From positions 4,704,001-4,768,000 of the forward strand of contig OZ250165.1 in assembly GCA_965238005.1 (NCBI GenBank): a DNA stretch of 64,000 nt. The letters run 5' to 3'. A model generated the notes under the pieces. It did no database searches. It was not told the origin of the DNA and saw only the letters and a program-made list of their open reading frames with translations. Positions 12,595 through 25,979 of the stretch are shown piece by piece; the stretch's first letter is position 1; every line of letters begins with the position of its first letter. The translations under genes were made by a program, and so were the position numbers. The stretch comes from Longimicrobiales bacterium (GTDB lineage Bacteria > Gemmatimonadota > Gemmatimonadetes > Longimicrobiales > Gaopeijiaceae).

Positions 12595-13445
12595 CCACCC
12601 GGCCCCCGGCGTGGGAATATGCGCTGCCCCTCCACGTGGAGTGCCACGGGGACGGCGGCAGCCCTGTCGTGCTCCTGCACGGCTACGCAGCGAGCTCCTT
12701 CTTCTGGCGGTATTGGATTCCCGCTCTGGCGGAGTATCACGAGGTGTGGGCGGTGGACCTCAAGGGGCACGGCTCGGCGCCGGCTCCTCCGGACCATCGC
12801 TACTCTCCTCATGACCACGCCGAGTTGATCCACCGCTTCATCATCCAAAGGGACCTGCGTGAGCTGACGCTCTTCGGGCACTCCATGGGTGGGGGGATCG
12901 CGTTGCTCGTTGCCCTTCGACTGCTGGACCAGGGACGGCTCCAACGACTGGTGCTAGTCTCCAGCGCCGCCTACCCGCAGCGTCTGCCCCCCTTCGTGAA
13001 GCTGGCCCGCAGGGGTCGAGCGACCCGCTGGCTGTTCGCGGTGGTCCCGAAGCGGCGGCTCATCAGGTGGGTGCTCCGGTCCATCGTCTACGATCCGTTA
13101 GCCATCAGCGGAGCTCAGGTGGAGGCCTACGCCGAGCCGCTCACGAGGGCACCTCATCGCCTGGCCCTCATCGAAACAGCACTGGGCATCGTCCCGTCGG
13201 ATCTCGACGAGTTCACCGCCCGTTTTCGCGAGATCGACGTTCCGACGCTTCTCCTCTGGGGGCGTCACGACCGCGTGGTGCCCCTCTCCGTGGGTGAGAG
13301 GCTCTCTGGCGCCCTACCCCAGGCCACCCTCGAGGTGTTGGAGGAGTGCGGACATCTACCGCCCGAGGAGCTCCCGGAGGACTCTCTGGAGATCGTCCAG
13401 AGCTTCCTCAGGGGCGGCGTCTCAGACGCTCCGTCAGAAGGGTAA
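12591..13445 (+). CDS. Alpha/beta fold hydrolase
   Basis: LLHGY, GHSMGG nucleophile elbow, WGRHD and CGHLP. Confidence 0.9.
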   Translation: MTTRPPAWEYALPLHVECHGDGGSPVVLLHGYAASSFFWRYWIPALAEYHEVWAVDLKGHGSAPAPPDHRYSPHDHAELIHRFIIQRDLRELTLFGHSMGGGIALLVALRLLDQGRLQRLVLVSSAAYPQRLPPFVKLARRGRATRWLFAVVPKRRLIRWVLRSIVYDPLAISGAQVEAYAEPLTRAPHRLALIETALGIVPSDLDEFTARFREIDVPTLLLWGRHDRVVPLSVGERLSGALPQATLEVLEECGHLPPEELPEDSLEIVQSFLRGGVSDAPSEG

Positions 13446-14130
13446 GGAGCATCTTGCTCCCGGCGCGCACCGTGCCCATCACCGAGCCCGATATCTTGGA
13501 CTCTCCAGCGGATCGAGCTCGGTGGGCGACCTCGATCTCCACGATTCGGAACGCGTGCCGAGCCGCCCGGATTTGCATCTGCAGCGTCCAGCCCCAGTTA
13601 CGATCGTCCATCTCCAGCTCGATGAGCTTGCGGAAGTCGATGGCCCTAAACGGGGGCAGGTCACGAAAGCTGCGACCGAAGAGGAGACGAATCATCGAGG
13701 TGACGAGGCGGTTTCCGAGACGCGCATGTCTGAAGACGGTGCCGACCTTTCCGCCCCCTCGACGTCTGACGCCCAGCGTTAGGTCCGCCTCTCCTCGCAA
13801 GATCGGATCGACGAGCATCTCGATCTGGCCCGGACCTTCCCCGTGATCGGCGTCCAGGAATACCAGGACCGCAGGTGGATTAGGCATGGACCGCAGGAAG
13901 TCGATGCCTGCGAGGCACGCCGCTCCGTAGCCCCGCTGGGGCTCGGTCACCAGGTACGCCCCTCCTTCCACGGCCACGTCCGGGGTCCGGTCCCTGGAGC
14001 CGTTGTCCACCACCACTACCTGCCCCACGGATCGGTCCCGCAGGTCGGAGAGGAGCCCCGGAAGTGTTTCCTCCTCATCAAGGGCGGGGATCAGCACTGC
14101 AACGAAGTGGGTCACGGGGAGACCGGGCAC
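13408..14130 (-). CDS. Glycosyltransferase family 2 (DPM1-like)
   Basis: IPALDEE, VVDNGSRD, RGYGAAC, FLDAD and SKISG. Confidence 0.9.
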   Translation of the reverse strand: MPGLPVTHFVAVLIPALDEEETLPGLLSDLRDRSVGQVVVVDNGSRDRTPDVAVEGGAYLVTEPQRGYGAACLAGIDFLRSMPNPPAVLVFLDADHGEGPGQIEMLVDPILRGEADLTLGVRRRGGGKVGTVFRHARLGNRLVTSMIRLLFGRSFRDLPPFRAIDFRKLIELEMDDRNWGWTLQMQIRAARHAFRIVEIEVAHRARSAGESKISGSVMGTVRAGSKMLLTLLTERLRRRP

Positions 14131-14189
14131 GGTGGCGAGCCAATGAAGCGTCGGCGGTGAACCTAACGCCTCCGGAGAAGGAACCCCTC

Positions 14190-15488
14190 ATGGGCTCTGG
14201 CCGTTTCCTCGCGGCCATAGGCGCCGTCGAGCTCGTCCTCCTGGCCACCGCTGCATGGTGGCCTGGGCGAGGCTTCCCCTCGCCCGGCCTCGGCCTCGTG
14301 GGGGGCGCCTTCTTGGCGTACGGGCTTGCCGCATACGCGACCGGACGGGGGGGGCCACAACGCTCCGTCCGGACAGAGCTCATGATCATCTGGGTGTGGG
14401 CCCTCGTCTTCCGCCTGGTCCTGCTTCCGGTGCCCCCCGAGCTCACGGACGACTTCTACCGATATCTCTGGGACGGGCACGTCCAGCTTCAGGGCGTCAA
14501 CCCGTACCTTTACGCGCCGGCCGATCCGGCCTTGGAGGCGCTGCGGACACCGTGGCACGGACTCATCAACAGTCCGTCGGTGTTCACCATCTACCCGCCC
14601 CTGGCCCAGATCGTCTTCCTGCTGAACGCCCTGCTGGGAGGGACGATCCTCGGCCTGAAGGTGGTGTGGGTGGGCCTGGATCTTGTGACCGCGTTCCTCC
14701 TGGGAAGGGTGGCGAGCCGGTCGGGGCGTGACCCCCGGGGGGTGCTGACCCTCTACCTGTGGTCCCCATTGCTCATCATCGAGACCGCCTGGAACGGGCA
14801 CCTGGAGGCCTTGGGGCTCGTGTTCATCGCCCTTCTCCTCTATTCCGGCGCCCACCCGGCGCGCGTGGGAGTGGCCCTGGCCCTGGCCACGCTGGCCAAG
14901 TTCGCTCCCGCCGCCGCTCTGCCTCCGCTCTGGAGACGGTACGGATGGCGGATGGTGCTGGCGCTCGGCGTCACCCTCGCGGTGCTCTATCTGCCTTACG
15001 TGTCGGCGGGCAAGATGCTGTGGGGAGGCCTGTCTACGTTCGCCGAGCACTGGCGATTCCAGGAGGGTGCCTTCGCGGTCTTGGAGTGGATCATTCCCGG
15101 CCCCGTGGCGCCCCGTGTGGCGGCGGGGCTGATCGTCCTGGCGGTCATCGGTTGGACGACCTGGAGGTCGTACAATGCCGAGAAAGCCCTTTTTTGGATC
15201 CTGGGAGCTGGCCTGCTCCTTTCCCCCACCGTCCACCCCTGGTACGTGCTCTGGGCCCTTCCGTTCGCGGCCCTGCGCGGGAACCGGGGCTGGATCCTCC
15301 TAAGCGGGCTCGTATTCCTAGGCTACTGGGGCCTCGAGACGTATCACTCCCAGGGAGTCTGGCCTCAGCCCGTGTGGGCCCGCTTGCTGCTCTGGGCCCC
15401 GGTCTTCGGATTGCTTGCCTACGATGCCACGGGGCTCTCCGGGCGAGGCGTGGCGGCGGCCGAGGTGGAGGCGGCCGAGGTCGTCTAG
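14190..15488 (+). CDS. GT-C membrane glycosyltransferase (GT87/DUF2029-like)
   Basis: TDDFYRYLWDG, NPY, TIYPP, GHLE and PTVHPWY with multiple TM helices. Confidence 0.8.
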   Translation: MGSGRFLAAIGAVELVLLATAAWWPGRGFPSPGLGLVGGAFLAYGLAAYATGRGGPQRSVRTELMIIWVWALVFRLVLLPVPPELTDDFYRYLWDGHVQLQGVNPYLYAPADPALEALRTPWHGLINSPSVFTIYPPLAQIVFLLNALLGGTILGLKVVWVGLDLVTAFLLGRVASRSGRDPRGVLTLYLWSPLLIIETAWNGHLEALGLVFIALLLYSGAHPARVGVALALATLAKFAPAAALPPLWRRYGWRMVLALGVTLAVLYLPYVSAGKMLWGGLSTFAEHWRFQEGAFAVLEWIIPGPVAPRVAAGLIVLAVIGWTTWRSYNAEKALFWILGAGLLLSPTVHPWYVLWALPFAALRGNRGWILLSGLVFLGYWGLETYHSQGVWPQPVWARLLLWAPVFGLLAYDATGLSGRGVAAAEVEAAEVV

Positions 15489-16898
15489 CCCCCTCAGTCC
15501 CAGGCCCAAGTATCCGGAGCCGAAGAGCACGATGAACGGTACCGACCCGTAGAACCCGGCCGCGAGGGCCCCGGCGAGGTAGCCGACCATGACCACACCC
15601 AGGGACAGCTTGAGAATCAGATCACGGGCGGGGATCGGAGCCCGGTACGAAACCCGGGTCGCCTCGCCCTTCTTGGGAGTGCGCACGAACGGATCATCGC
15701 CTCCATGGAAGAGCCCCCGGATCACGGACCCGGTCACCGCCACCGTCAGCCCGATGCCCAGAGCCAAGGCCTGCGGCACTGCCCGCAAGCTCCAGCTCCG
15801 GCTCCGGCCCCGCTTGGAGGCCGCTTGGGAGTAGAACACGAGGAACGGCACCGTAGCCGCCGTGAACACCAGGAGGTCGGGCAGCAGATAGTGCTCGACC
15901 CCCAGCGCACGTCGGGCGATTTGGGAGGGGACGAGCAGTAGCCCCAGAAGCAGCGTCAGGGGGTGGGCTAAATGTCCGCAAAGGTGCACGGTCCCCTCCA
16001 ACTTCACCCCCAGCGGCCATGGTCCCCGAAGCAGCTCAGGGAGGACCCTCTTCGCGGTGGTCCCTCCCTGAGCCCAACGCCTCTGCTGTACCTCCAGGGC
16101 GCCGACGGTAGACGGGATCTCGGCCGGAACGCCGACGTCCTCCAGGAAGACGAAGCGCCACCCCTTCATCTGGGCCCTGTAGCTGAGGTCCAGATCCTCG
16201 GTCAGCGTGTCGGCCCGCCAGCCCCCGGCCTCGTGGATGCAGGTGCGCCGCCACATGCCGGCCGTGCCGTTGAAGTTGAAGAAGTGCCCGCTCTTGTACC
16301 GACCACCTTGCTCGAAGAAGAAGTGTCCGTCGAGGAAGAGACTCTGGCCCTTGGTCAACCAGCTCTCGTCCGAGTTCAGATGGTCCCAGCGGGCCTGCAC
16401 CATGCCGACCCCCGGATCACGGAAGGGGGGCAGGATCCTCCGGATCAGATCGGGCGGTGCGACGAAGTCCGCGTCGAGGACGAGAAGGAAGTCTCCTCGC
16501 GATCGCTCGGTCCCGTAGGCCAGGGCGCCGGCCTTGAAGCCGGCCCGCGTCCCTCGGCGCATATGCTCCACCGACACGCCCCTGGCTCGCCACCCCTCGG
16601 CCAGAGCCTCCGCGGTGCCGTCGGTGGAGTCGTCCAGGATCTGCACGTCGAAGCGGTCACGGGGATAATCCTGCCCACACGCTGCATCCACGAGCCGTTC
16701 GATGACATGGACCTCGTTGTAGATGGGCAGCTGGATCGTAACCCGAGGAAGCTTGGACTCGGGCCAGGGGTCCAGAACGGCCGACTTCGGCCGTCTGGAG
16801 AGCACCAGCAAATACGCCCGGTGCAGCGCGAAAGGAAGGAGCAGGGCGAGCACACCTGCCGTGAGAATCAAGGTGATGTAGGCCAGTACTTCCGGCAT
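15318..16898 (-). CDS. Cellulose synthase-like GT2 glycosyltransferase
   Basis: QLPIYNE, LDDSTD, FKAGAL, DADF, FNGTAG, TEDLD and QQRRW. Confidence 0.9.
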   Translation of the reverse strand: MPEVLAYITLILTAGVLALLLPFALHRAYLLVLSRRPKSAVLDPWPESKLPRVTIQLPIYNEVHVIERLVDAACGQDYPRDRFDVQILDDSTDGTAEALAEGWRARGVSVEHMRRGTRAGFKAGALAYGTERSRGDFLLVLDADFVAPPDLIRRILPPFRDPGVGMVQARWDHLNSDESWLTKGQSLFLDGHFFFEQGGRYKSGHFFNFNGTAGMWRRTCIHEAGGWRADTLTEDLDLSYRAQMKGWRFVFLEDVGVPAEIPSTVGALEVQQRRWAQGGTTAKRVLPELLRGPWPLGVKLEGTVHLCGHLAHPLTLLLGLLLVPSQIARRALGVEHYLLPDLLVFTAATVPFLVFYSQAASKRGRSRSWSLRAVPQALALGIGLTVAVTGSVIRGLFHGGDDPFVRTPKKGEATRVSYRAPIPARDLILKLSLGVVMVGYLAGALAAGFYGSVPFIVLFGSGYLGLGLRGLDDLGRLHLGRRHASPGEPRGIVGKQSEDRGPEQQAGPHGLRPDSLGVIRLEAPVA

Positions 16899-16984
16899 GC
16901 AGCTCGCTCGGGTGATGAAGGAGATGAGAAGCGGGGACCTCGTTGTCCAGTGTACTTCAAACCCGGCCGCCGGTCATGGGGTTC

Positions 16985-17449
16985 CTACGGACCCTCCTCG
17001 ATCTCAGCGGTCCAGGTGATCTCCACCGCACCCTTCAGGCTCTGGGCAGTGGGGCACTTGTCCACGTGCCGCTCCAGCGCCTCGTCCACGATCTCCCGGG
17101 TCCCTTCGGGAATCTGGATGGTGTAGTGGACATGGATCTTGGTGAGGACCGGGATCTTGTCCCGCATCTCGTTGAAGCCCTCGGCACTCAAGCGGATGTG
17201 ATCGCTCGGCAACTTGACCCCGCGCACTTCCAGTGCGCCGATGAGAGTCCCGAGTAGTCAGCCGGCCGCCGACGCCACCAGATAGTCGACGGGCAATGGC
17301 AGGTTGGGCTCCGAGTCCAACCCGTAGTGGGCCTTCACCGGGCCGTGCACGCCGAAGTCGATCTGGGTGCCATCCTCCAGGAGAGCCCGTCGATGGACTC
17401 CCGACAGCCTCCCAACCTCGGCCCGGGCGACGTAGAACGGATCGTTCAT
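16985..17449 (-). CDS. OsmC-like peroxiredoxin, predicted selenoprotein (UGA=Sec at 17260-17258)
   Basis: Two ORF-track pieces are in frame across one TGA: ...VDYLVASAAG-U-LLGTLIGALEVRG...HVDKCPTAQSL. The TGA is at the first catalytic Cys position of OsmC/Ohr proteins and a SECIS-like hairpin follows. Confidence 0.85.
17222..17238 (-). promoter_or_regulatory. Bacterial SECIS-like hairpin
   Basis: GCGCACU-GGA-AGUGCGC begins 19 nt after the UGA; the apical loop starts with G about 26 nt downstream. Confidence 0.7.
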
Positions 17450-17640
17450 TCCTCCACCTCCCCCTCGTGTTCGGTAGCCGCCACCTCGAAGCCCGGGCAA
17501 GCGAGCACGGGGAGCGGTGGATACTTCGGATATCGCGAGTCCTCGAAGGATCGCTCGCAAAGATAAAAGATAGACGCTCGCTCGTTCTCGACCAGTCGGA
17601 CGAAGGCGCACCTCTCACAGAGCCCCACCGCCCTACTCAT
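17446..17640 (-). CDS. Small four-Cys protein, 64 aa (putative metal-binding)
   Basis: MSRAVGLCERC...FYLCERS...YPKYPPLPVLACPGF; ATGA overlaps at both ends. Confidence 0.75.
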   Translation of the reverse strand: MSRAVGLCERCAFVRLVENERASIFYLCERSFEDSRYPKYPPLPVLACPGFEVAATEHEGEVEE

Positions 17641-18373
17641 GGCCGAATTCCCAGCAGCGCCGCCTGGCGCTCGGATCGCCCTCCCCGGTGTGAGAACAAA
17701 CCGGCGGTTCCACACAGAGTGCAGTGCTCCGAAACCGTGATGCGGCTCTCTTGGATACCCAGTGCGCGGGCCCGAGAGACCAGAAGGGCTCGTACGTCCA
17801 CCGGCGTGGGACCGGACGGTGTTGGCAGCCCCAGGGCGTCGCAGACCTCCGGGCCAACCTCGTAGCAGGCCCCGCAGATGGCCGGGCCGAGATGCGCGTG
17901 TAGGTGGGCAGCGTCCGAGGCGAACTGTGTGTGGAGCGTCTGGATCCCCTCCGCCATGATGCCGCCCGCTATCCCCCTCCATCCAGCGTGTAGAAGAGCC
18001 ACGACCCGCCGCTCCGGGTCCACGAGGTAGACCGGCACGCAGCCGGCCACCGTCACCGCGAGCAGCACCCCGGGCGTGGATGTGGCATGCCCGTCCGCCG
18101 GACCGCTGTCGACATGTACCCCCGTGGGAGTGCGTCGTACACGGCCACCCTGGTCTCGTGGACCTGACGAGCGTGGGCGACCGTGCCGAAGCCTGTGGCC
18201 ATCAGAACGGCTCGCCAACGATCGTCCGCCCGGGGGGGTGGAGACTCCCCAAAGAGCCGGAGGTCGAAGGGATCGTTCTTGGAGCCCGCGTGGGTGATGC
18301 CGGCCATCACCCATGGAAAGCGGTCCGCCCACGCACCCACGGGATGAAACGGGATACCGGCGTCGGCAAGCAT
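17637..18373 (-). pseudogene. pgeF: YfiH/PgeF family protein, frameshifted near 18120
   Basis: N-terminal part (ARQVHETRV) is in a different frame from DGHAT...AGCVPV...HAGWRG...GPAICGACYEVG...CT...LFSHR. The shift is at a C run (18119-18123), so it may be a sequencing error. Confidence 0.75.
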
Positions 18374-18387
18374 GTCGAAAACTCTAG

Positions 18388-18748
18388 AAGGCTGTTGAGG
18401 AAGTACAGTGCGTCGCGCACAGGATGCTTGCGCGCGTTCAGACAAGGAACGACGACGAGTCGTAGCCGAGCTACGGCGAGGAGGAGAGACGCAGGATCAA
18501 CCGCGCAACCACCCTGTGCCCAACGGAATAGTTGCTATGAACTTACGTGTTCGTGGGTTGCGGTGGCACGGCCCCGACCACGCTTCGCGTGGTGCCCCCG
18601 TTGTTGGAGCTCCTAACCGTAGCGACGGCTATGGCCTCGTCGCTCCGACCCACGCTGTCGCGCGGGTACCCCGGATCTGGGGCCGTGGCATCCCGGGTAC
18701 CCGTGCGGTAGCACGGGTGGCGACCCGCTGTACTTCCTCATCAGCCTT
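18388..18748. mobile_element. MITE type B (about 361 bp, non-autonomous)
   Basis: TIRs AAGGCTGTTGAGGAAGTACAG (18388-18408) and CTGTACTTCCTCATCAGCCTT (18728-18748) match 20/21; CTAG on the left, CAG on the right; no transposase. Confidence 0.8.
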
Positions 18749-18859
18749 CAGACCCCCGAGGCGATTTTCAAGGAAAAAGCTCGGAGCCCCCGGCGCGGCT
18801 CCACGTCGCCGCCGGTGTGCCGCGCGGGGGCCCACTCTTGCCGATCCGTGGTCGTCGGT

Positions 18860-21304
18860 CTACCGCACGCCGGTCACGCGGAGACCCGCCACCAGAGTGC
18901 GGGGCAGTCCGGGACGGAGCCCAGCCGGGCGCCTCGCCACGCTGTAACGCTCGTCCGAGACATTCTGGACGCCGGCGAACACGGTCCCCCTGCGGTCGAG
19001 CTGCAGCTCCCCGGCCAGGTTGAATACCACGTACGAGTCCGTGCCCTCCCCCCCTGGGATGGGACCTCGACCGGCCCGCGTTCGCATAGCGCCCGACGCC
19101 ATCGTGGAGAGCGTGACGCTCCACCGCGGATGATCGTACCCGATGCTGCCGCTCATCTGGTGCGCGGGGAGGTATGGGAGGCGGTCGCCGATCTCAACCT
19201 CGCCCCAGGGACCGTAGTCGGAGTCGAAGGAAGACCGGAATTCGGCACGCGTATGCGTATAGGTGATCCGTAGGGGCACACGACCCGCCCAGCCGCGTCC
19301 CCAGGCGAAATCGTAGTCCACGGAGACCTCGACACCCGCTACCGCGGCGTCCCCTCCGTTGTACGCCTCGCCCGTGCCATCCTCGGTGGTGGCCAGCGTC
19401 GCCCGTCCGAGGATGTTCGCGTAGTCGCTGTAGAACGCGCTCGCCTGGGCGGCCAACCCCGAGTTCCGCCACCTCCCGCCGAACTCGTAGTTGACGCTGC
19501 TCTCCGGGCGCGTGGCCTCGGCGGCACCGGGTCCCTGAGGTCCGAACCCCTTGTGAACACCCCAGAAGAGGTTGAGGTCACGGGCGGCACGATACGAGAA
19601 CCCGATGCCGGGGATCCACACATTCACCCGGTTCTCCCGAACCCGGGCGGGGTCGTCGCTGGCGTAGTCCGTTCGGGCGAAGTCGATGTGCTCGAAACGG
19701 ACCCCGGGAGTCACGACCAGGCGTCCGAGCTCGACTTCGTCCTGCACGAAGAAGGCGAGCGCGTCGGCCGAGCTCACCCGATTGGACTGGCTCCCGGGCT
19801 CACCAACGGTCGTGAGGACCATGGTACCGTCCTGCATCTGGAACGCGTCCTCCCACTGGAAGCGGTCCTCCTGGTCACGGTGGAACCGAAGGCCCAGCTC
19901 GAGCTCATGACGGCCGAGGCCGAGGCCCACCGTCGACTGCACACCCTCGGCGAAGTAATCACGATTGTTTGCCCGAACCCTGAGTGCGTCGGGGTCGCTA
20001 CCCTCCCCGCGCAGGATCTCGAGGGCCGGCGCATTCTCGTCAGGAGCATCCAAGACCTTGCTGATGCCCGTGCCCAGCACGCTCTGCAGCTTGTACCAAT
20101 TCCGGGAGAAGTCAGTGCGATACGCCGTCGTCGTTACGTCGCCGGCACCGCGGGTCCAGAAGTGGCGGAGCTGAATCTGCGAGTGCTCGGCCTTCATCAG
20201 GTCCGACTCGGAGGCCGGGTATCGGTACAGCGGATTCGTGGCGAAGTCCGCGTCCGTGAGGCCGAGATAGGTCTCTGCCGACTCCTCGTCGGTGTAGCCG
20301 AGCTTGATCTCCAGCTCCTGATACGAGGGGCCTTCACGATCGCTGTTGACCCGAACCTTCCCCATGAAGTCGGCCACGTCGAAGCCCGTCCCCGCGCCGG
20401 TGTCCAGCTCCTTGAAGCCGTCGGTCTCCAGCGTGTACCCCTCCAGGAGCCACCCGAAGCGGGTGCCGGAGTCACCGATCCGGCCGTGACCCCTCAGGGT
20501 GGCGTTCTCACCCGCGGCTCCCTCCATGAACCACGAGAGCCGATCGGGGATGGACGACGAGACGAGGTTGATCGCGCCACCGATGGTGCGGGGACCATAC
20601 TTGACCTGGCTCGATCCCTTCCGGACCTCCACGGCCTCCATGCGCCCGGCCACCGGAAAGTAATAGGCAGACGGAGCCGTGTAGGGAGCGGGGGCGATGA
20701 GTACGCCGTCCTCCATGAGGGTGATCTTGGAGCTCCGGTCCACACCCGTCCCCCTGAGCCCGATGTTGGGACGAAGCCCGAACCCGTCCTCGTCCTGGAC
20801 GTTCACCCCCGGAACGAGGCGCAGGAAGTTGTGGATGTTGTCGAACACGAAGGCGGGAGACTCCAGGTCCGCCGCGACCAGCACGTGCGCAGCCCCGGGA
20901 ATCTCGTCGATGCCAAGGGGGTCACCGATCATCCGGGTGCGCGCAGTGAGGACCCTGATCGGGTCCAGGCGGATCGGTCCGGCACCCATCTCGGCGGTCA
21001 CCCGGAGCTCCCTGTCGTCGACCACCGTCACCGTCTTGGTGAGGGTCGAGTAGCCGAGGCGCACGAACCGTAGCGAGACGGTGCCTAGGGGGATCCCCCT
21101 CAGCGCGTAGCGTCCGGCGTCATCGGACAGGGTGCGAAGGGATGTGCCCACCACCTCGACCGAGGTTCCAGCAAGGGCCGAGCCGTCCTCGGTGGCCTGG
21201 ACGAACCCTGCAATCCTGCCGGGGCCGTCCTGTGCATTGACAGAAGGTGACAACAGCGAGGCTACGACGATCAGCTGGAGGATCCTGCGAACGGAGACAC
21301 TCAT
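18860..21304 (-). CDS. TonB-dependent receptor, FecA-like iron uptake
   Basis: Signal peptide, carboxypeptidase-regulatory-like N-domain, plug motifs GLRPNIGLRG, LMEDG and EVRKG, C-terminal RPGLPRT. Confidence 0.9.
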   Translation of the reverse strand: MSVSVRRILQLIVVASLLSPSVNAQDGPGRIAGFVQATEDGSALAGTSVEVVGTSLRTLSDDAGRYALRGIPLGTVSLRFVRLGYSTLTKTVTVVDDRELRVTAEMGAGPIRLDPIRVLTARTRMIGDPLGIDEIPGAAHVLVAADLESPAFVFDNIHNFLRLVPGVNVQDEDGFGLRPNIGLRGTGVDRSSKITLMEDGVLIAPAPYTAPSAYYFPVAGRMEAVEVRKGSSQVKYGPRTIGGAINLVSSSIPDRLSWFMEGAAGENATLRGHGRIGDSGTRFGWLLEGYTLETDGFKELDTGAGTGFDVADFMGKVRVNSDREGPSYQELEIKLGYTDEESAETYLGLTDADFATNPLYRYPASESDLMKAEHSQIQLRHFWTRGAGDVTTTAYRTDFSRNWYKLQSVLGTGISKVLDAPDENAPALEILRGEGSDPDALRVRANNRDYFAEGVQSTVGLGLGRHELELGLRFHRDQEDRFQWEDAFQMQDGTMVLTTVGEPGSQSNRVSSADALAFFVQDEVELGRLVVTPGVRFEHIDFARTDYASDDPARVRENRVNVWIPGIGFSYRAARDLNLFWGVHKGFGPQGPGAAEATRPESSVNYEFGGRWRNSGLAAQASAFYSDYANILGRATLATTEDGTGEAYNGGDAAVAGVEVSVDYDFAWGRGWAGRVPLRITYTHTRAEFRSSFDSDYGPWGEVEIGDRLPYLPAHQMSGSIGYDHPRWSVTLSTMASGAMRTRAGRGPIPGGEGTDSYVVFNLAGELQLDRRGTVFAGVQNVSDERYSVARRPAGLRPGLPRTLVAGLRVTGVR

Positions 21305-24378: not shown

Positions 24379-25979
24379 GAGTCTGCGCCGCAGAACCCTG
24401 CGGCGGCTATCTTTGGTGGTAGCGAAGGCATTGGGAAGGCTTGCGGATCACCGAGGGGGGTGAATGGGAACGACATTTCGACCGTACGATCCGGAGCAGA
24501 TGTTGTTGCTGCCTCCGGATCTTCGGGAGTGGGTGTCGGAGGGTCATTTGGCGCACCATGTGAGCGACCTGGTGGACGCGGTGGAGCTGAGCGCGTTCTA
24601 CGGGCGGTACCGGGGGGACGGGCGGCGCAACTCGCCGTACGACCCTCGGATGATGGTCAAGGTGCTGATCTACGCGTATGCGACGGGCACCTTCTCGTCG
24701 CGGAAGATGGCGAGGAAGCTGGAGGAGGATGTCGCGTTTCGGATGCTGGCGGCGGAGAACTTCCCGAAGCACCGGACGCTGTGCGAGTTCCGCAAGCGCC
24801 ATCTCGGGGATTTCCGGGCGGTGTTTGTGGAGGTGGTGATGCTCGCGCGGGCCTTGGGGCTGGCGGGGCTTGGCAGGGTGTCGGTGGACGGGACGAAGGT
24901 TCGGGCGAACGCGAACAAGCGCAAGGCGATGAGCTACGGCCGGATGGTGACCGGGGAGCCTCGGCTGGAGGCGGAGATCCGGGGGCTGTTGGAGAGGGCC
25001 GAGGCGGTGGACGAAGCGGAAGACGAGCGCTACGGCGAGGAAGCATGCGGAGACGAGGTGCCGGAGGAGCTCAAGCGGCGCGAGGACCGGCTGGCGGCGA
25101 TCCGGGAGGCGAAGGCGCGCCTGGAAGCCGAGCAGAGAGCGGCGGACGACGCACGGGGCCGCAAGCCGGGGCAGACGCGCAACCCGAAGGGCGGCAGGCC
25201 CTACAAGCGGGAGTACGGAGAGCCGGACGAGGCGGCGCAGAGCAACTTCACGGACCCTGAGAGCCGGATCATGAAGACGAGTTCGGAGGGGTTCCAGCAG
25301 TGCTACAACGCACAGACGGTCGTGGAGGGGGAGAACCAGCTGGTGGTCGGGGCCGAGGTGACGGACAACGCGAGCGACCAGGGCCAGCTGGTGCCCATGG
25401 TCGACGCGGTGGCGCAAGCGTACGGCGAGACGCCGGCGCAGGTGCTGGCGGACACGGGCTATTGCAACGAGCGGGATCTCGAGGAACTGGAAGAGCGAGA
25501 CATCGACGGGTATGTGGCGCTGGCCCGGGAGGGCAAGGCCGCCCCCACGGTTGACAAGGAGGAATATCCGGCGAAAGTCCGCATGGCGGAGAAGCTGGCG
25601 AGCGAAGATGGCCGCAGACGCTACGCACGGCGAAAGTCGCAGGCCGAGGCGCCCATCGGCTGGATCAAGGAAGTGATGGGCTTTCGACGATTCAGCTTCC
25701 GGGGCCTCGAGAAGGTCCGGGCCGAGTGGACCCTCGTGTGCCTGGCACTCAATGTGAAGCGGCTGCACACCCTTCAGGCGGCATGACTGCACGAGGGTTC
25801 ACCCGCATCTGCCGGCGCGAGGGCTCTCGTAGCTCTCTTGCCCCCCCAACGCATCCATTCCGCTCTCCCGATCCGTCGCAGACACAAGTCCTCAACCTCC
25901 CAATCACCCGGATCCGCCTCGCCGCGGACGGCTCGATGACCATTCGGCTCAGTCAGCTGTGCTTCTGCGGCGCAGACTC
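24379..25979 (+). mobile_element. IS1182-family insertion sequence
   Basis: Perfect 17-bp TIRs GAGTCTGCGCCGCAGAA / TTCTGCGGCGCAGACTC with CTAG direct repeats at 24375-24378 and 25980-25983. Confidence 0.92.
24464..25786 (+). CDS. IS1182-family DDE transposase
   Basis: QMLLLPPDL, YDPRMMVKVLIYAY, VDGTKV, NFTDPES, YNAQ, ADTGY and FRRFSFRGLEKV. Confidence 0.95.
   Translation: MGTTFRPYDPEQMLLLPPDLREWVSEGHLAHHVSDLVDAVELSAFYGRYRGDGRRNSPYDPRMMVKVLIYAYATGTFSSRKMARKLEEDVAFRMLAAENFPKHRTLCEFRKRHLGDFRAVFVEVVMLARALGLAGLGRVSVDGTKVRANANKRKAMSYGRMVTGEPRLEAEIRGLLERAEAVDEAEDERYGEEACGDEVPEELKRREDRLAAIREAKARLEAEQRAADDARGRKPGQTRNPKGGRPYKREYGEPDEAAQSNFTDPESRIMKTSSEGFQQCYNAQTVVEGENQLVVGAEVTDNASDQGQLVPMVDAVAQAYGETPAQVLADTGYCNERDLEELEERDIDGYVALAREGKAAPTVDKEEYPAKVRMAEKLASEDGRRRYARRKSQAEAPIGWIKEVMGFRRFSFRGLEKVRAEWTLVCLALNVKRLHTLQAA

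Follow-up and report, generated by a model that had tools for sequence, protein, structure and literature searches.

OsmC-like selenoproteins were predicted in 2005 by Zhang, Fomenko and Gladyshev (PMC1088965), with assignment to COG1765/PF02566 and the motif UxxT in Table 3, and they recur in later surveys (PMC2398784, PMC1976440, PMC9312934 and PMC13188914, the last with one OsmC entry, UxxT). In PMC13188914, the OsmC-like selenoprotein stands as a prediction, outside the list of experimentally verified families. The active site of Ohr and OsmC is described as a Cys-Arg-Glu set in which the Glu lies 10 residues before the peroxidatic Cys (PMC5384416, PMC8945050, PMC5962072), as Glu51 precedes Cys61 in Xylella fastidiosa Ohr, a protein that is impaired by the E51A change (PMC5962072). 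Ohr-like/YhfA proteins are reported in the same three papers to keep the two Cys residues without the Arg and Glu, and their activity is largely uncharacterised; one such protein exhibited no peroxidase activity in one laboratory but was active in another (PMC5384416).

Within the window, which is the whole stretch of 64,000 nucleotides that was analysed, we examined a gene of this fold that is interrupted by a UGA codon (Table 1). The initial annotation had proposed that two open reading frame fragments join in frame into a protein of 154 aa with its second Cys (KCPT) intact, and that standard annotation would split such a gene. The minus strand does read as given there, from GCG GCC GGC TGA through the stem codons to GAA GTG CGC, and the translation of 17449-16985 holds a single internal stop, the TGA of codon 64. 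The second Cys is Cys132, which is invariant in the 117 Sec-type and 27 Cys-type rows of the family alignment. An ORF finder using table 11 splits the gene into 17611-17258 and 17227-16985, and the protein databases hold the same kind of fragment: C-terminal halves account for 93 of the best 120 of 333 matches, and 89 of these 93 start exactly at residue 65. We consider it very likely that the two apparent fragments are one intact 154-codon gene in which the UGA is decoded as selenocysteine. Note that contigs from four runs gave no variant at 17258-17260 among the 40 of 98 matches listed; none of those listed reaches 31 bases beyond the codon in both directions, and they are not counted as evidence. 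A search of 16700-18900 for a sigma-70 promoter-like site found none.

Table 1. Features of the locus, in positions of the window.
Feature	Position	Strand	Remarks
OsmC/Ohr-fold gene, 154 aa	17449-16985	minus	ATG at 17449, TAG at 16985, one UGA read through
In-frame UGA, codon 64	17258..17260	minus	predicted selenocysteine, at the peroxidatic-Cys column
Cys132, H-x-x-K-C-P motif	17054..17056	minus	predicted resolving Cys
Val54	17288..17290	minus	catalytic-Glu column of Ohr/OsmC; stands opposite the first E of PEEL in 1ukk
GVHG motif, residues 33-36	17342..17353	minus	clade signature
Predicted bacterial SECIS upper stem-loop, GCGCACU/GGA/AGUGCGC	17222..17238	minus	loop 26 nt 3' of the UGA
Shine-Dalgarno-like GGAGGT	17456..17461	minus	6 nt 5' of the ATG, within the upstream small ORF
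Four-Cys ORF, 64 aa (CxxC-x16-C-x19-C)	17446..17640	minus	upstream; its stop overlaps the gene start (ATGA)
pgeF/yfiH-like gene	17637..18332	minus	PF02578; overlaps the four-Cys ORF

The UGA is conserved in the family. Among 110 genome loci (some genomes are counted twice), column 64 is TGA in 108 and TGC in 2, both of the latter being distant OsmC-like genes, and 26 alignable metagenome loci of the 27 returned gave 25 TGA and 1 TGC, this last being the one Cys locus recovered by a metagenome scan for Cys-type DNA. Near-full-length database proteins, again from the best 120 of 333 matches, carry Cys at this column in 26 of 27 cases and a gap in the other. The column in homologs holds TGA or Cys and never Trp or Arg. 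The relatives belong mostly to Gemmatimonadota and there to Longimicrobiales; in 301 genomes of the phylum the family occurs in 86, and each of its 137 matches carries exactly one TGA. Two irregular relatives were encountered, a metagenome locus (L136) with a second stop and a genome (G029) whose copy appears frameshifted.

The initial annotation had further held that this organism decodes UGA as Sec, and the search of the genome for selA, selB, selC and selD supports this, since all were found: selA scores 555.9 bits, selB 327.6, selD 370.9 and tRNA-Sec 71.5, each above its curated cutoff, and selD has an in-frame TGA of its own. Across the 301 phylum genomes, selA is present in 243 (a count that includes one unpublished non-carrier genome, G210), including all 86 carriers of the gene, and the gene is found in 0 of the 58 selA-negative genomes; carriers were compared across two tables here, and related genomes are not independent. 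A separate sample of 61 genomes gave selA in 26 of 28 carriers. The two others are G010, which has selB and tRNA-Sec, and G009, which is 78% complete and showed none of selA, selB and tRNA-Sec. Although selA is otherwise very widespread in the phylum, it was not found in any of 12 genomes of one family (f2). We propose that the SelA, SelB, SelD and tRNA-Sec of the genome itself would decode UGA 64, directed by the predicted SECIS hairpin.

That a 7-bp hairpin follows the UGA within the distance usual for a bacterial SECIS had been noted from the letters, and this was upheld: with its GGA loop, 7 bp and 26-nt spacing, the element agrees with the bacterial SECIS model whose criteria appear in the Fig. 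2 legend of PMC13188914. The hairpin is present in the minimum-energy fold of three of four fragments and also forms in the fourth (121 nt), with fold energies of -16.9 to -34.4 kcal/mol for fragments of 46-81 nt. However, single-sequence folding z-scores are only -0.6 to -2.4, and a loose hairpin test is also passed after 137 of 1001 ordinary TGA stops (a 14% background), so that a single copy of the hairpin says little by itself and the evidential weight comes from the way it is conserved and covaries among relatives. In the 4.84-Mb genome the exact 17-mer is unique; a covarying form is likewise found a single time, in a paralog with an in-frame TGA of its own.

For the comparison across relatives we used 109 distinct TGA-type 63-mers, having set aside a single truncated locus and both distant TGC genes. 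Every one of the 109 retains all seven stem pairs. At pair +24/+32, 92 sequences have A-U, 15 have G-C and 2 have G-U, with no mismatch; the swap from A-U to G-C changes Val to Ala, and at pair +20/+36 one sequence has C-G in place of G-C. These counts are of sequences and not of events, and the G-C form is found mostly in early-branching rows. Codon choice follows the stem in the same manner: the Ala codon GCA is used there in 92 of 109 sequences, whereas it makes up 6% of the Ala codons in the rest of these genes; CTG is used in 109 of 109 (51% elsewhere) and CGC in 106 of 109 (36% elsewhere). The one Cys-type DNA at hand (L119), which is the sole Cys-type control for the hairpin, has lost both the stem and the GG of the loop. 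Among the 27 Cys-type proteins, 13 do not fit the GALEVR pattern, and in 12 of these the departure is at residue 72, a position that is invariant in the Sec forms. As judged from these substitution patterns, the hairpin is under selection at the RNA level.

We also performed a crude scan of the genome for TGA codons flanked on both sides by coding-like sequence, which returned 83, of which 11 are followed by a hairpin. These 11 include the OsmC-fold gene, its paralog, and three genes of known selenoprotein families with the UGA inside a redox motif, namely DUF3179 (UxxC), CMD/AhpD-like (CxxU) and Trx-like (UxxC), all of which are catalogued in Table 1 of PMC13188914. Because the scan missed selD, its output is an incomplete selenoproteome. 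Besides the OsmC-fold gene and its paralog, probable selenoprotein genes, each with a hairpin after its UGA, were seen at 296274 (-), 1630105 (+), 2420275 (-) and 578551 (+) of contig C1 of the genome; their families are DUF3179 (UxxC), Trx/AhpC-TSA with TPR repeats (UxxC), CMD/AhpD-like (CxxU) and selD.

The read-through protein matches Pfam PF02566 with 57.7 bits (cutoff 27.5) over residues 51-146, across the UGA. An AlphaFold model built from a 27-row alignment has a pLDDT of 95.7, and its best VIA-align match is 2onf (Z 16.0, rmsd 2.0, 139 residues aligned); the top 11 matches are OsmC/Ohr-family structures only, with Z from 10.5 to 16.0, and the next, unrelated structure has Z 6.9. Foldseek agrees on the fold (TM 0.67-0.71). 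The sole PDB sequence match is Thermus thermophilus OsmC (1ukk), in which the first catalytic Cys aligns with residue 64, as had been claimed for the UGA position, and the second with Cys132; the two redox positions lie 68 residues apart. The name "OsmC-like peroxiredoxin" given initially is only partly apt: the OsmC fold stands (PF02566, 2onf), whereas neither "peroxiredoxin" nor OsmC in the strict sense is shown, because the catalytic Glu is absent from 144 of 144 family rows, its column holding Val, Ile or Leu throughout.

This replacement of the catalytic Glu leads us to place the protein, by its sequence, in what appears to be the Ohr-like/YhfA-like group and not in OsmC or Ohr proper. 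The lipoyl-dependent thiol peroxidases of the Ohr/OsmC group (TIGR03561, TIGR03562; 1ukk, 1qwi, 1n2f, 1zb9) share the fold and the two redox positions with this protein, but the identity is 13-23%, Sec replaces the peroxidatic Cys, Val replaces the catalytic Glu, and no Arg is placed here at the Ohr/OsmC position. The score against TIGR03562 is 19.3 (cutoff 85.8 bits), and TIGR03561 has no match to this protein (P0001) and a weak one to 4 of 27 family members. Ohr-like/YhfA proteins (PMC8945050 citing Shin 2004; Meireles 2017, PMC5384416) also have two redox residues without the Arg/Glu pair, and their structures (2onf, 1ml8, 2d7v, 2e8c, 2pn2) are the best structural matches, with Z 13.6-16.0. 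The protein described here differs from them by Sec at the first position and by its own GVHG/D55/H128 signature, and it scores 16.1 versus 138 against PRK10738. Residues G33, H35, G36, D55, T68, R76, G91, H128, C132 and P133 do not vary across the 144 rows, and R20, which lies near the beta1-beta2 turn in the monomer AlphaFold model, is present in 143 of 144. The Sec motif is U-L/M-L-G-T, with G67 and T68 kept in 117 of 117 Sec rows.

That Sec-containing OsmC-like proteins are known was also stated at the outset, and correctly so, given the 2005 prediction (PMC1088965). That family shares with the present one the fold, the second Cys, an in-frame UGA with a bacterial SECIS, and Sec at the first-Cys column, where its sequences read P-x-x-Y-x-V-x5-U-L-L (PMC1088965, PMC12013277). 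However, its published members read FYSDEP...GFULLT...GCFAE, whereas the clade described here reads FGVHG...GULLGT...KCPT, with UxxGT in place of the UxxT of Table 3 in PMC1088965. The protein scores 27.7 bits against NF041052 (OsmC_like_Se; cutoff 95 bits), which to judge from its name models the 2005 family, and among 27 family members the strongest match is no better than E 2e-9. A search of the genome with NF041052 did not return the OsmC-fold locus; it returned two other OsmC-like genes, both below the cutoff and without internal stops. Because the 2026 review (PMC13188914) counts proteins that differ in their Sec motif as distinct subfamilies, the clade would be one by the same usage, and it appears to be a second, uncatalogued OsmC-fold Sec subfamily. 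A description of the clade was not found in the full-text literature searched; Haft and Tolstoy 2025 (PMC12013261) or BSepDB (PMC13326102) may already include members.

In a quick tree with column 64 masked, the 27 Cys forms fall into two groups nested among the Sec forms, which suggests that at least two Sec-to-Cys reversions may have occurred; the tree comes from a quick search with SH-aLRT support only, a midpoint root and very long outgroups. Two or more copies of the family are present in 50 of the 86 carrier genomes. A fuller history, which we offer tentatively and hold to be somewhat doubtful, would have a Sec-ancestral subfamily of Ohr-like enzymes that gained Sec independently of the 2005 family, uses its own Arg20/His35/Asp55/His128 site in place of the Ohr/OsmC Arg-Glu pair, gave rise by duplication to two Sec paralogs and underwent at least two reversions to Cys. 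Were this correct, natural Sec/Cys pairs would allow a direct test of Ohr-like/YhfA function and of whether selenium compensates for the missing Glu. As a separate observation, the second Sec-type paralog in this genome (L148, genome 3998795-3999262, minus strand) has 34% identity and the same UGA column, and its covarying hairpin, GCGCGCU-GGA-GGCGCGC, has the same 26-nt spacing.

By analogy with Ohr/OsmC, we think that the protein probably works as a peroxide reducer. Following that chemistry, it would be a homodimer in which the Sec64 selenolate attacks and reduces a hydroperoxide, and Cys132 would then resolve the oxidised Sec64 to form a Se-S bond. Re-reduction would fall to a dithiol carrier, for which a lipoylated dehydrogenase subunit is the likeliest candidate, a link suggested by knowledge of the family. 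The pKa of Sec is intrinsically low, and this property together with the nearly or fully invariant Arg20, His35, Asp55 and His128 may replace the Arg-Glu pair in activation. Selenium cannot be the sole substitute, because the 27 natural Cys forms are also without the Glu; the Arg/His/Asp set is the other candidate, and GVHG with Arg20, Asp55 and His128 is accordingly put forward as a candidate substitute for the pair. We hold it highly probable that the UGA is decoded as Sec and that Sec64 and Cys132 form a redox couple.

The substrate step is where this scheme has its most serious competitor, namely that the UGA does encode Sec and the Sec64/Cys132 couple serves to reduce disulfides or sulfoxides, or to carry sulfur or selenium, and not as a peroxidase. 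We regard this as a real if less favoured possibility. The absence of the catalytic Glu from all 144 rows speaks for it, as do the nearest structures, which are uncharacterised Ohr-like proteins (2onf, 1ml8, 2d7v, 2e8c), the uncharacterised activity of the YhfA type (PMC8945050), and the clade-specific invariant residues (GVHG, D55, H128), which suggest a substrate of the clade's own. Upstream of the Sec gene and divergent from it, 28 of 80 loci have an msrA-like gene (e.g. L077:2134-2832), which there replaces the pgeF operon, but these loci are limited to one closely related clade. Peroxide reduction is favoured in turn by the characterised members of the fold, which are thiol peroxidases as described in PMC8945050 and PMC5384416, and by the redox residues, which keep the family spacing of about 60-70 residues.

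The decoding of the UGA is far less contestable, and we regard codon 64 as almost certainly read as selenocysteine. Were the TGA a true stop, arising from a sequencing error, in a pseudogene, or between two small genes of 63 aa and 90 aa, one could point to the many C-terminal halves stored as separate proteins and to TGA being the commonest stop of the genome, at 514 of 913 long coding ORFs. However, the same TGA recurs, with both halves conserved, in over 100 genomes that span 32-95% identity at the protein level, it coincides with the catalytic Cys column, and the gene is found only alongside Sec machinery, bar the one 78%-complete genome (G009). Of the 117 Sec rows, 100 have Leu at residue 65, which leaves no conserved Met start for a downstream gene. 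Termination at this codon is thus very improbable. We give equally little credence to insertion of another residue, that is, Trp or Gly under an altered code or Cys delivered by a suppressor tRNA, for which there is no specific support beyond the natural Cys forms, which show that Cys is tolerated at column 64. The frequent use of TGA as a stop argues against any genome-wide reassignment, Trp and Gly never occur at this column in homologs, and the only UCA-anticodon tRNA called by ARAGORN is the 97-nt tRNA-Sec that exceeds the RF01852 cutoff. The same program called one 76-nt tRNA gene with an unreadable "ca" anticodon.

Reading the gene as a selenoprotein repairs the annotation of a family that is stored as truncated halves and occurs in 86 of the 301 genomes sampled from the phylum, adds an apparent second OsmC-fold subfamily to the catalogue of bacterial selenoproteins, and points to residue 64 as the redox-active position in the Ohr-like/YhfA group, which is poorly understood. 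A further gain is a very clean example of a bacterial SECIS, with covariation inside a coding region. No principle is changed, in that Sec decoding, SECIS elements and Sec-containing OsmC-like proteins were already known.

The gene is likely the last of an operon that runs pgeF, four-Cys ORF, osmC-like gene, with the pgeF-like gene the probable first member; the latter points the same way as the osmC-like gene in all 73 loci in which it was located. The four-Cys ORF, which is next to pgeF here and at many other loci, matched no Pfam family, and its product, which carries a YPxLPV motif and is probably metal-binding, has only unnamed clusters from several phyla as ESM Atlas neighbours. Its stop overlaps the gene start by 4 nt in 37 of 78 loci where the ORF was found. 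We considered it as a dedicated partner of the selenoprotein and rejected this, since it occurs in 54 of 61 relatives, among them all 12 genomes of the selA-negative family that is without the Sec gene, and among the 76 genome loci with enough flank it adjoins the Sec gene in 37 and is missing there in 39. At 29 of 71 loci a divergent sucA lies no more than 3 kb away. Functional links to sucA (through a lipoyl reductant) or to msrA were treated as synteny because each is limited to part of the tree. A scan with lipoyl motifs did not identify sucB near the window.

Several minor features of the surroundings may be recorded. Directly after sucA, which sucB does not follow, there is a DDE transposase gene with a DUF772 domain (24464-25786, plus strand). 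Downstream of the osmC-like gene, 13408-16898 holds two GT2 glycosyltransferase-like genes that form a convergent cluster with a gene for a GT87-like membrane protein, and the 526-aa GT2 lies within the examined flank in 20 loci. Elsewhere in the genome there are two dense tRNA arrays of 17 genes each (1035994-1037821 and 4451264-4453598), the first of which holds a tRNA-Ile(aat) and the "ca"-anticodon gene and may indicate a mobile element or prophage.
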